DNA of 26,147 nt from an uncultured bacterium. GTDB lineage: Bacteria > Elusimicrobiota > UBA5214. The notes under the pieces were generated by a model. That model was not told where the DNA came from and searched no databases. It saw nothing but the letters and a program-made list of their open reading frames with translations. Shown here piece after piece: positions 8,970 to 11,205 of this stretch; within the stretch, counting starts at the first letter, position 1; every line of letters begins with the position of its first letter. The translations under genes and the position numbers were made by a program. The stretch spans positions 2,563 to 28,709 of the forward strand of contig CAZRHN010000005.1 of NCBI GenBank assembly GCA_964599925.1. The letters are read 5' to 3'.

Positions 8970-9620
8970 ATGGTAGAGAACTTATTTTGGTTAGGGCATG
9001 CAAGTTTCAAAATTACCGGAGAGATGGTTCGAGACCCTCACCATCCCGAGCAAAGTCGAAGGATGGTTGTCTATGTTGACCCCTGGCAGATAAAGAAAGG
9101 TGGTGAGCCGGCAAACATAATTTTGATTACTCATGACCATTATGACCATTGTTCAGCAGAAGATGTAAAAAAGATACAAACCAAAGATACAGTTATTGTT
9201 ACTGTTTCTCAGTGTAAAAGTAACCTTAGTGGTGAAATAATTATTACCAAACCGAATGAAAAAATTACTGTGCAAGGAATTGAGATAAGTGCTGTACCGG
9301 CTTACAATCTCAATAAGCCTTTCCATCCCAAAGCAAACGGTTATCTCGGTTTTATTGTTAATTTGAATAAGAAACTTTATTATCATGCCGGGGATACTGA
9401 TTTCATTCCCGAAATGGAAAAGGTTAAATGTGATATTGTCCTTTTACCAGTCTCGGGAACTTATGTGATGACCGCGGAAGAAGCAGCGAAAGCGACTGAG
9501 AAAATTAAACCTGCACTTGCGATCCCAATGCATTATGGCAGTATCGTCGGGTCAAGAAAAGATGCTGAACAGTTTAAAAAGTTATGTGAATGTTCGGTAG
9601 AAATCTTAGAAAAAAGTTGA
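8970..9620 (+). CDS. MBL-fold metallo-hydrolase (UlaG-like/beta-lactamase superfamily)
   Basis: WLGHASF, THDHYDH (HxHxDH), YHAGDT, AIPMHYG. Confidence 0.9.
   Translation: MVENLFWLGHASFKITGEMVRDPHHPEQSRRMVVYVDPWQIKKGGEPANIILITHDHYDHCSAEDVKKIQTKDTVIVTVSQCKSNLSGEIIITKPNEKITVQGIEISAVPAYNLNKPFHPKANGYLGFIVNLNKKLYYHAGDTDFIPEMEKVKCDIVLLPVSGTYVMTAEEAAKATEKIKPALAIPMHYGSIVGSRKDAEQFKKLCECSVEILEKS
9023..9068. repeat. Palindromic element in-frame in the MBL gene, bounded by GATGGTT direct repeats
   Basis: GATGGTT at 9023-9029 and 9062-9068 (39 nt apart); internal TTCGA...TCGAA inverted repeat. Confidence 0.8.
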
Positions 9621-9624
9621 ACAA

Positions 9625-11205
9625 ATGTTTTATCTTGAACCGTTAGTTCTACCCGAAGAAGAAAATTTTACCGACCGTTATTTAAAATTATCTAAAAATT
9701 TGTTTTCCCTCGGCTTTGCTCGGGATGGTGAAAATATTGAACTATTAGCCCAAGATAAAGATATGAATTATCAGCAAATTCCCTTGAGCCTCAATGAAAA
9801 AATTTTGCGCATAATCTGGTATGAACAAAAATTTGAACGGCGTGGTTTAAGGACAGTTGATGGTAAAAAGATTTGTATTATCTCACCCGGTGAATGGAAT
9901 CTTGATGAGGGACCAGATTTTAAAAGTGCGGAGATACGTTTTGGTGAAAAGATAATTTCTGGAGATATTGAAGTAGACCTGAAAGCATCCGACTGGAAGA
10001 AACATCAACATAACTGTGATGAGAAATATAATCAAGTAATCCTTCATGTTTTTTTTCTCAATAATCGCAAAGAAGAAAAAATTGCCCGAAAAGCAAATCA
10101 GGAATACGCTGAGCGTGTGGAACTGCGCGGAGCGTTGAGAGAAGATTACCTCCCCAATCCGGAAGATATGGAAAATTATCCTTCCCGTGCTTATTTAAAA
10201 AGAGGTAACTGTGGTAAAAAAATTTCTGTTCATAGTTATCCCTTAATAGAGAAGTTACTCCTCTGGGCTGGCGCGGGAAGATTTTTATTAAAAACCGAAC
10301 GGTTTAATCAGCGCTTAGCACGATTATCTTTTGACCAACTTCTTTATGAAGGGGTAATGGAAGGTCTAGGTTATAAAGCGAACCGTGAGCCGATGCTTAC
10401 TCTCGCTCGCTTGTTACCTTTAGAAAAAATTAAAAGTTATGTGGAAGATTTTCCTCTTGAAGAAAAAATTTACCTCCTGGAGACACTTTATTTTTATCTT
10501 TCTGGACTTTTACCAGAAGAAAAATATTTTTCTTCTTCTTCTTGTCCAGAAACAAAAATTTATCTTGAAAAGTTATGGACAATTCTGAAAAATTATCTGA
10601 AATTTCTGCCTACACCTTTTCATCTCAGTCGCTGGGTATTTAAAGGTGTCCGTCCGGCGAATTTTCCTTTAAGACGTCTTTCGGGGATAAGCCATTTTCT
10701 TAACCGCCATTGGCAAGGAGTAAAGGAAGGTTTTTTTCTTTCTTTCTATAAAAAAATAAAGATGGCTAATTCAATAAATGAGTTGAAAAAAATTTTTTTT
10801 CAACCTGGGGAAGGATATTTTGCCAACCACAGCCAATTTTCCCAGAAAAAAAGTAAAAAAGTATATGCTTTAATTGGTGAAGAACGAGTTTCGGCAATTC
10901 TGGTGAATACAGTTTTTCCTTTATATTACCTTTATGCATTGCGGGAAAATGATTTATCTACCCAGAAGATAATCTATTCGTTTTATCACTCTTTGAAAAG
11001 AATAAACGTTAACCATATTGCTAAATTGATGGCTTACCGTCTTTTTGGTGCAGAGAAAATCAGGCAATTTCCGATTGAAAGCGAACAAAAACAGCAAGGT
11101 CTTTTACAAATTTTTCAAGATTTTTGCGAGACAAGAATTTCCGCTTGTGGACAATGTTTCTTTCCACAAATTTTTGATTTGTCAATTGGCGAAATAATAA
11201 AGTGA
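9625..11205 (+). CDS. DUF2851-family protein; start could be ATG 9763
   Basis: EKILRIIW, PGEWNLDEGPDF, GDIEV..KASDWKKHQH..D..YNQVILHV, RPANFP..RL pattern recalled for DUF2851. Confidence 0.75.
   Translation: MFYLEPLVLPEEENFTDRYLKLSKNLFSLGFARDGENIELLAQDKDMNYQQIPLSLNEKILRIIWYEQKFERRGLRTVDGKKICIISPGEWNLDEGPDFKSAEIRFGEKIISGDIEVDLKASDWKKHQHNCDEKYNQVILHVFFLNNRKEEKIARKANQEYAERVELRGALREDYLPNPEDMENYPSRAYLKRGNCGKKISVHSYPLIEKLLLWAGAGRFLLKTERFNQRLARLSFDQLLYEGVMEGLGYKANREPMLTLARLLPLEKIKSYVEDFPLEEKIYLLETLYFYLSGLLPEEKYFSSSSCPETKIYLEKLWTILKNYLKFLPTPFHLSRWVFKGVRPANFPLRRLSGISHFLNRHWQGVKEGFFLSFYKKIKMANSINELKKIFFQPGEGYFANHSQFSQKKSKKVYALIGEERVSAILVNTVFPLYYLYALRENDLSTQKIIYSFYHSLKRINVNHIAKLMAYRLFGAEKIRQFPIESEQKQQGLLQIFQDFCETRISACGQCFFPQIFDLSIGEIIK
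9706..9730 (-). repeat. Second copy of the 9039-9063 element, inverted orientation
   Basis: Reverse complement CACCATCCCGAGCAAAGCCGAGGGA vs CACCATCCCGAGCAAAGTCGAAGGA: 23/25 identical. Confidence 0.9.

Follow-up and report, generated by a model that had tools for sequence, protein, structure and literature searches.

A 39-nt self-folding repeat in two neighbouring Elusimicrobiota genes, probably a mobile element that occurs in many bacterial phyla

The window analysed here, a stretch of 26,147 nt, is part of an Elusimicrobiota metagenome-assembled genome (MAG) of 0.99 Mb that is 78% complete and has a 37.6% G+C content. Two neighbouring genes of the window, encoding a metallo-beta-lactamase (MBL)-fold hydrolase and a DUF2851 protein, carry one short sequence in opposite orientations. 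These two stretches are probably copies of a self-folding, non-autonomous mobile DNA element of 39 nt; the element is best read as a new mini mobile element, akin to repetitive extragenic palindromic sequences and their doublets (REP/REPIN) and to Rickettsia palindromic elements (RPE), among the short interspersed palindromic repeats. Comparison of loci shows insertion as a unit of exactly 39 nt, in both orientations and with no duplication, together with a preference for A or AA, presence/absence between near-identical lineages, bursts of sub-variants and a patchy distribution across phyla. Throughout, G labels denote genomes and L labels loci or contigs; G000 is the window's genome, and L011 belongs to G001. 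The two host genes and the two copies are as follows:

8970..9620, + strand: host gene 1, intact gene for an MBL-fold metallo-hydrolase (Lactamase_B_3) that has the HDHYDH motif
9025..9063, + strand: copy 1, TGGTTCGAGACCCTCACCATCCCGAGCAAAGTCGAAGGA, in the MBL-fold gene; nhmmer E=1.9e-12
9625..11205, + strand: host gene 2, DUF2851 protein, with the Pfam domain from residue 58
9706..9744, - strand: copy 2, reverse complement TAGTTCAATATTTTCACCATCCCGAGCAAAGCCGAGGGA, in the N-terminal extension of the DUF2851 protein; nhmmer E=4.3e-9

The first-pass annotation of this region had described a 25-nt near-identical inverse pair, and that pair is real: CACCATCCCGAGCAAAGTCGAAGGA at 9039-9063 (+) recurs as its reverse complement with 2 mismatches (23/25) at 9706-9730. 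Chance and artefact are ruled out, as none of 100 dinucleotide shuffles of the window gave 2 matches to the 25-mer and copies also occur in long-read and closed assemblies. A repeat search of the window carried the similarity of the pair to 40 nt at 80%. The true unit, set by comparison with more than 100 copies elsewhere, is exactly 39 nt (9025-9063, +; 9706-9744, -); this unit length and the spread over many phyla had been overlooked. In codon register 9024-9062, copy 1 supplies residues 19-31 of the MBL protein (KITGE[MVRDPHHPEQSRR]MVVYVDPW), and cutting out the 39 nt restores KITGE|MVVYVDPW, as had been pointed out, matching the GE-(K/R)V(V/I)YIDPW of orthologues. Copy 2 is translated in the DUF2851 frame from the opposite strand of the element (NLF[SLGFARDGENIEL]LAQDK), and the reading FSLGFARDGE given earlier for this stretch is correct. 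The N-terminal 57 residues of the DUF2851 protein appear to be coding, since differences between the window and G001 in this part are mostly synonymous.

Filled and empty versions of the same sites carry the argument for insertion. For the MBL gene the orthologue evidence comes from the best 120 homologues: only one of these, P0001 (93% identical), has the 13 residues, and the typical length is 202-206 aa. The filled MBL alleles (window, L020 and L158, which have the copy in common) and the empty ones (L162, L163 and L018) differ by exactly 39 nt, the empty allele reading GAGAGGGTG. Outside the element the gene diverges by 7.4% between the window and L020, by 1.6-1.8% between L020 and L162/L163, and by approximately 15-17% to L158 and L018. 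If L020 and L162 are taken as sisters, the empty L162/L163 allele would be explained by one seamless loss, a more parsimonious history than gaining the copy three times at one nucleotide. The earlier suggestion of a dispersed family of insertion elements is borne out by the genome-wide search and the orthologue alignment that had been proposed with it, since further copies exist in G000 (contigs C50 and C84) and in many other genomes, and since all MBL orthologues beyond the nearest lineages are without exactly these 13 residues.

The DUF2851 site is filled in the window and in a distant pair, L011 (G001) and L164, and is empty by exactly 39 nt in L020, L162, L163, L018 and L165. Either the site was hit twice, or one old insertion was followed by three seamless losses; the copy in the window is old and decayed, or else it marks a second hit there. 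Divergence among the three filled copies is approximately 30%, the same as in their flanks, which favours age. Their stems are nevertheless retained, with CGG/CCG replacing TGG/CCA in L164. A third site, in a gene for a Trm112-like protein, is filled in G000 only and is empty by exactly 39 nt in L166 and five others, L166 being the nearest relative found for this gene (roughly 90% identity in DNA and 98% in protein). The Trm112 copy is identical to the window's MBL copy at 38/39 positions and to the L158 MBL copy at 39/39; being restricted to G000 and nearly identical to the MBL copy, it points to recent copying in this lineage.

Two seven-nucleotide repeats flank the MBL copy:

9023..9029, + strand: upstream GATGGTT, the last two target bases GA followed by the element head TGGTT
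9062..9068, + strand: downstream GATGGTT, the element tail GA followed by target TGGTT; a look-alike

These direct repeats, 39 nt apart, had been recorded correctly, but they are not a target-site duplication: ATGGTT is the conserved 5' end of the element, and the downstream copy is a look-alike, since relatives read GAAGGTT or GAAGGTC there. The bases that follow the element are ATGGTT in the window, AAGGTT in L020 and AAGGTC in L158, GAG|AGGGTG being the sequence of the empty allele. At the junctions of other sites only A, AT or AATG is shared (1-4 nt), and junction look-alikes overall span 1-7 nt. The DNA added at the MBL, DUF2851 and Trm112 sites amounts to 39 nt, no more than one A being ambiguous, and a true target-site duplication is ruled out: the downstream sequence differs in relatives, and no duplication of fixed length is present at these three sites.

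Pattern and nhmmer scans of G000 located four canonical copies, all of them in frame within coding sequence. Two are those of the window; the others are:

C50:5676-5714, + strand: Trm112-like zinc-ribbon protein, context KLKKK[MVRDPHHPEQSRG]NEQEYLVC
C84:2679-2717, - strand: N-terminus of an ECF/ABC ATPase, context MEA[MVQYIHHTEQSRS]IEIKNLSF

G000 also contains variants. Two are 36 nt long (C31:2635-2670, -, and C72:4281-4316, -), one of which lies in frame in a 1444-aa open reading frame (ORF) as NGSVPHHPEELKD; in another (C44:5310-5353, +) both stems are exchanged for other complementary stems; and a multiply nested composite (C2:8414-8477, +) adjoins an assembly gap. Single hairpin units of the form stem-TGARC-N2-3-GYYGAA-stem, with differing 5-6-bp stems such as GACCC/GGGTC, are found in G000 contigs C2, C28, C38, C63 and C68. 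This suggests a wider superfamily in which the 39-mer is an inverted doublet of single hairpin units.

Two further observations concern the neighbourhood of the copies. In G001 (L011 1340-1410) the MBL gene is almost wholly deleted, its first 26 nt or so (GTGGTAGAAAATTTATTTTGGTTGGG) being joined to bases before the DUF2851 start, and an unrelated NYN/LabA-like gene lies upstream of the deletion. Comparison of the window with L162 (approximately 7-10% diverged) reveals many short GC-rich, often palindromic intragenic indels, at window positions 10461, 10512, 11212, 11464, 12648, 13368 and 14413: L162 has inserts of 15, 27 and 30 nt that are absent from the window, the window has a 24-nt insert that is absent from L162, and blocks of 81-122 nt also differ. 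Several small repeat families appear to turn over quickly in the window's lineage.

Beyond G000, a cross-phylum scan (one genome per species) returned at least 119 loci, all from MAGs, and the counts for the family given here were made among the matches listed. Aligned copies read (A)TGGTTCGAC-NN(N)-GCTCACCATCCYGAGCRAAGTCGARGGA, with sharp ends and unrelated flanks, and their consensus is TGG-TTCGACnnGCTCA-CCA-TCCY-GAGCRAAGTCGA-RGGA. Conservation exceeds 90% in the head TGGTTCGAC and in the tail RGGA, though the search pattern left both of them out. Length is exactly 39 nt in 94 of 106 copies and 40 nt in the other 12. The relatives of G000 bear Elusimicrobia or Elusimicrobiota names, and four other genomes of the phylum carry the element (5/61 in the Elusimicrobiota sample). 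The hosts span more than ten phyla: Planctomycetota (including Pirellulales, Phycisphaerae and Scalindua), Desulfobacterota, Zixibacteria, Omnitrophota, Elusimicrobia, Woese-, Roizman-, Levy- and Daviesbacteria of the candidate phyla radiation (CPR), Binatia, Nitrospirales, Chloroflexi, Ignavibacteria, Bacteroidota, Aegiribacteria and one gammaproteobacterium. Host loci range from 33 to 62% G+C, with megabase contigs and closed chromosomes among them.

Some genomes hold 17-39 copies, with genome-specific sub-variants such as GAGCGGAG and GAGCAGAG in G063, and a sample of 150 further genomes of G063's class had no copy at all. No match was found in 72,556 plasmids or 50,697 phage records, and only 2 of 2.9 million viral contigs carry the element. 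Approximately one fifth of the 106 copies lie within long ORFs, the remainder (approximately 80%) being intergenic; intragenic hosts elsewhere include leucyl-tRNA synthetase (LeuRS; a single Woesebacteria gene has two copies), a GH106 rhamnosidase, a GH38 mannosidase and GT4 glycosyltransferases. When 821 flanking ORFs were compared with one another by all-against-all BLAST, no recurrent neighbouring gene family emerged. The base preceding TGG is A in 77% of copies and position -2 is A in 68%, with nothing beyond, and positions 1-2 of the right flank show no match to the element head. Using local GC skew as a proxy, which is noisy and was applied to non-independent copies, the forward strand lies on the G-rich strand in 60/96 loci (p=0.018); the direction of this bias matches, weakly, lagging-strand-template targeting. 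Literature searches by exact sequence or keywords found no publication with the element, and it is apparently undescribed so far.

Copies also occur in contact with one another. A perfect, spacerless head-to-tail dimer of the 39-mer in a Pirellulales MAG (L046 1056-1133) occupies the loop of a flank hairpin of 8 bp (AACCCGCC...GGCGGGTT); 36 nt upstream lies a third copy. In L026, L056 and L136 a complete 39-mer lies nested within a second one, whose loop 2 it enters at GAGCAG^AGTCGA in every case. Several phyla (e.g. L038, L068, L107 and L124) have the 39-mer amid a larger AT-rich composite repeat (…AAATCCCAAATATCAA[39-mer]CAAATTCCAATGACCAAAAT…), which may be a longer element carrying the 39-mer. 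Two other identities were dropped: a CRISPR solo repeat, as there are no arrays and only the single tandem dimer without a spacer, and a likeness by eye to the tRNA T-arm/CCA-end and 23S rRNA, for which stems or contiguous matches failed. The centre of the element, CCATCCTG, resembles the nick core of IncP-type relaxases (YATCCTG|Y), and this is a lead only.

The copies appear to share a fold, which in copy 1 comprises:

9025..9043, + strand: hairpin A, TGG / loop TTCGAGACCCTCA / CCA
9044..9063, + strand: hairpin B, TCCC / loop GAGCAAAGTCGA / AGGA; C.A mismatched, where L020 and L158 have GGGA

Two hairpins next to each other, TGG[13]CCA and TCCY[12]RGGA, are favoured by RNAalifold as well as by explicit pair counts, with 99% of cells paired. 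At the Y-R pair of hairpin B, distinct sequences have UA 71 times, CG 26 times and other combinations 4 times, and the observed covariation was reached by 0/500 shuffles. Compensatory variants are found in three of the seven stem pairs. Besides the Y-R pair, two more carry independent ones, the T-A pair of hairpin B among them: ACGG...CCGT in G070, G063 and L164, and CACCC...AGGG in four genomes. Further variants are TACT/AGTA, a double change in stem B, in the ABC ATPase copy, and TAG/CTA with GACCCT/AGGGTC in the C44 variant. Two stacked hairpins are supported by these comparisons as the probable fold. Each loop is the reverse complement of the other (TTCGAC/GTCGAA, GCTCA/TGAGC), so the consensus can also form one long hairpin. 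This hairpin is the thermodynamic optimum of the consensus as DNA (-7.9 kcal/mol, z -2.2); its covariation does not exceed that of shuffles, and 30 sequences break one of its pairs. The ends of the element, TGG and GGA, are complementary to its centre CCA|TCC. Stacked hairpins or joined ends would bring the flanks together on this account: we infer a continuous 7-bp duplex, RGGATGG/CCATCCY, closed by the two loops, with the flanks side by side.

In the mobile-element reading, two short stems (TGG/CCA and TCCY/RGGA) would close the conserved 12-13-nt loops in the manner of a miniature REP doublet, and movement and precise loss would proceed via a folded single-stranded intermediate. The candidate agent would be a strand-transferase of HUH/Y1 type, or another, acting in trans; seamless loss could alternatively come about by replication skipping the folded unit. 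Horizontal spread would then give rise to the patchy distribution across many phyla. A more ambitious version is possible but doubtful, and we put it forward tentatively: that this is the smallest self-defined bacterial mobile element, whose dumbbell fold presents the junctions, and which would be excised and inserted seamlessly as a single-stranded circle by a widely shared enzyme, hop between phyla and seed 13-residue inserts in essential proteins.

Several points weigh against mobility of this kind. No mobilising enzyme was found: G000, at its 78% completeness, has no Y1 transposase (Y1_Tnp), Y1 genes elsewhere are not beside copies (12 Y1 loci in element-rich genomes have no copy within approximately 1.5 kb), and adjacency to a REP-associated tyrosine transposase (RAYT) was not seen, the RAYT of G066 being flanked by different hairpins. 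Co-occurrence with Y1_Tnp is uninformative: it is present in 11/11 hosts, yet such genes are common in element-free genomes (127/151 Planctomycetia and 25/56 Elusimicrobiota). The target preference, only A or AA, is weaker than that of known IS200/IS605 elements. As to the fold, the thermodynamics of the consensus favours the long hairpin over the two-hairpin form, shuffles fold just as well as the G000 copies (z about 0), and the covariation could partly reflect sub-family descent. Lastly, the ABC-site copy of G000 (C84:2679-2717) and the one at the same place in L155 (904-942) are identical at 38/39 positions, whereas the gene differs by 31% (262/850; Fisher p=2e-5). Decay as junk DNA does not predict a copy so much more conserved (1/39) than its gene; selection, conversion or repeated homing could be responsible, though the pattern that picked out L155 itself requires conservation.

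An unlikely alternative is that no transposon is involved, and that the 39-mer is patched into breaks or hairpin loops by repair or template switching from an abundant template, with loss by slippage. The template could be a small single-stranded DNA or an RNA from a retroelement, and such patching would fit the missing target duplication, the junction look-alikes of 1-7 nt, the failure to find a transposase, the tandem dimer and the many other small GC-rich palindromic in-frame inserts that this lineage gains and loses. Approximately 9-10% of copies are at the tip of a strong flank hairpin, which would fit as well, but insertion into flank hairpin loops as a rule was rejected, as the enrichment is not significant overall (mean -7.6 vs -8.4 kcal/mol). 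Junction microhomology beyond a single A is likewise not general, no source of the template was identified, and the multiplying genome-specific sub-variants fit spread from copy to copy.

We give little weight, too, to the idea that a cellular function (e.g. RNA stability, translation control or a protein-binding hairpin) retains the 39-mer as a structured motif of RNA or single-stranded DNA, spread by selection instead of selfish mobility. The compensatory stem changes fit this idea, as does the retention of stems in old intragenic copies while their loops drift; the ABC copy, in the region of a start codon, is nearly invariant despite 31% divergence of its flanks; and several copies end just 5' of start codons, with the GGA/GGGA tail there looking like a ribosome-binding site. 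However, orientation relative to flanking genes is unbiased (24 copies co-oriented, 19 anti, 13 convergent and 12 divergent), both orientations are found inside coding sequences, and no Rfam covariance model matched (none relevant at E<=10 for the window region, none at E<=1 for three consensus-copy loci). The element is also present or absent among lineages 1.7% apart whose gene is otherwise unchanged, is missing from 150/151 genomes of one class, and in the DUF2851 gene decays at about the rate of its flanks.

The 13-residue peptide is most improbable as a functional protein module under protein-level selection: three G000 copies are in the same frame (MVRDPHHPEQSR- / MVQYIHHTEQSR-), but the reading of the DUF2851 copy uses the other strand and that of the C31 variant another frame, approximately 80% of copies in other genomes are intergenic, and a conserved protein motif is ruled out by the MBL and Trm112 orthologues, which function without the insert. 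In the AlphaFold model of the MBL protein (mean predicted local distance difference test, pLDDT, 89; predicted template modelling score, pTM, 0.89), residues 19-31 lie in the turn between the second and third strands (12-20 and 30-36) of a hairpin, at low confidence (mean pLDDT 66 for the insert block), and the HxHxDH motif is intact. The first-pass annotation had noted that both orientations are stop-free in the frame used. This is correct for both copies and yet unremarkable, and stop-free frames as an adaptation are ruled out: 4-5 of the unit's 6 frames are open, as composition predicts, and 59% of composition-matched shuffles are open in at least four. Survival in genes needs only a length divisible by three and a tolerant site; in this compact genome the copies that remain lie in tolerant loops or termini, since 39 nt makes up 13 codons and most frames (4-5 of 6) of the GC-rich unit are open.

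That the inverted pair is a recombination device which inverts or switches the MBL gene is equally remote, and no evidence was found for the recombination between the copies that had been suggested with the original pair: the arms are inverted and 642 nt apart, and the MBL gene is lost in G001, but only 25-27 nt are common to the arms, at 92% identity, five related contigs that have both genes keep MBL and DUF2851 collinear, copies are gained and lost independently (L020 has one, L162 neither), the ends of the G001 deletion do not match the positions of the element, and inverted repeats invert and do not delete.

If the mobile-element reading is correct, one 39-nt sequence would be a genomic parasite shared by many uncultured bacterial phyla and would keep supplying housekeeping proteins such as LeuRS, the ABC ATPase and Trm112 with small in-frame insertions. 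It would also provide a clean system for the mobilisation and seamless removal of very short DNA, and a marker of horizontal exchange between distant phyla in sediments and groundwater. For annotation, it would account for odd peptides in MAG protein predictions (VRQAHHPERSRR, SFDFAQDGEPVEP, WFDRLTILSEVEG and similar), and annotators would have to reckon with ORFs that are spurious, 'lineage-specific inserts' that are false and contigs broken at repeats.

Among known systems, REP/REPIN sequences have 20-40 nt per unit and are mobilised by RAYT/TnpA-REP Y1 transposases (PMC3116915, PMC3479197). The 39-mer is like them in being an imperfect palindrome and an inverted doublet hairpin, non-autonomous, with sub-families within genomes and tens of copies (PMC3116915, PMC3479197). 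In contrast, REPs are species- or genus-specific and extragenic, carry a 5' GTAG tetranucleotide and flank a single RAYT gene (PMC3116915, PMC3479197), whereas the 39-mer is present in more than ten phyla, has the head (A)TGGTTCGAC and intragenic copies, and was not found beside a Y1 gene. RPEs are likewise palindromic selfish DNA lying in frame in unrelated housekeeping genes, where the surface tolerates them and the protein stays intact (PMC10969869). In-frame residence with the protein intact is seen for the 39-mer in the MBL, Trm112, ABC ATPase and DUF2851 genes and the 1444-aa ORF of G000, and in LeuRS, GH106, GH38 and GT4 genes elsewhere. RPEs, however, are approximately 100-150 bp long, form about ten families and are restricted to Rickettsia (PMC10969869), while the 39-mer forms a single family in many phyla and, outside compact genomes, lies mostly between genes.

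Derivatives of the insertion sequences (IS) IS200/IS605 resemble the 39-mer in making no target duplication, in seamless loss and in having folded single-strand ends that join the junctions ('peel and paste', by way of a single-stranded circle; PMC6006769). The weak one-strand bias of the 39-mer is a further likeness, and only a single strand could feasibly form a circle of 39 nt. Known elements of this group need approximately 40 nt per end and insert 3' of a defined 4-5-nt target (PMC6006769); the 39-mer is 39 nt as a whole, has only A or AA as target and two hairpins that are unlike in the same orientation, and TnpA presence is uninformative for it. Its strand bias (60/96) is far weaker than that reported for IS608-type elements. 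Transposable elements of the miniature inverted-repeat type (MITEs; Correia, ERIC, BOX, RUP and Nezha) are also short and non-autonomous, with imperfect terminal inverted repeats and possible in-frame ORF fusion (PMC10969869), but are typically 50-500 bp long and have target duplications and a parent IS with the same ends (PMC10969869). The 39-mer was found to have none of these features; counts of its left and right halves nearly coincide in four copy-rich genomes (34/35, 39/39, 18/17 and 16/12), halves at IS-length spacing not having been looked for genome-wide. The 39-mer unites the architecture of a REP doublet or REPIN, the in-frame residence of RPEs and the scarlessness of IS200/IS605 derivatives, and it departs from each of these three in defining features: from REPs in RAYT linkage, GTAG tag and lineage specificity, from RPEs in size and host, and from IS200/IS605 derivatives in target motif and end length.

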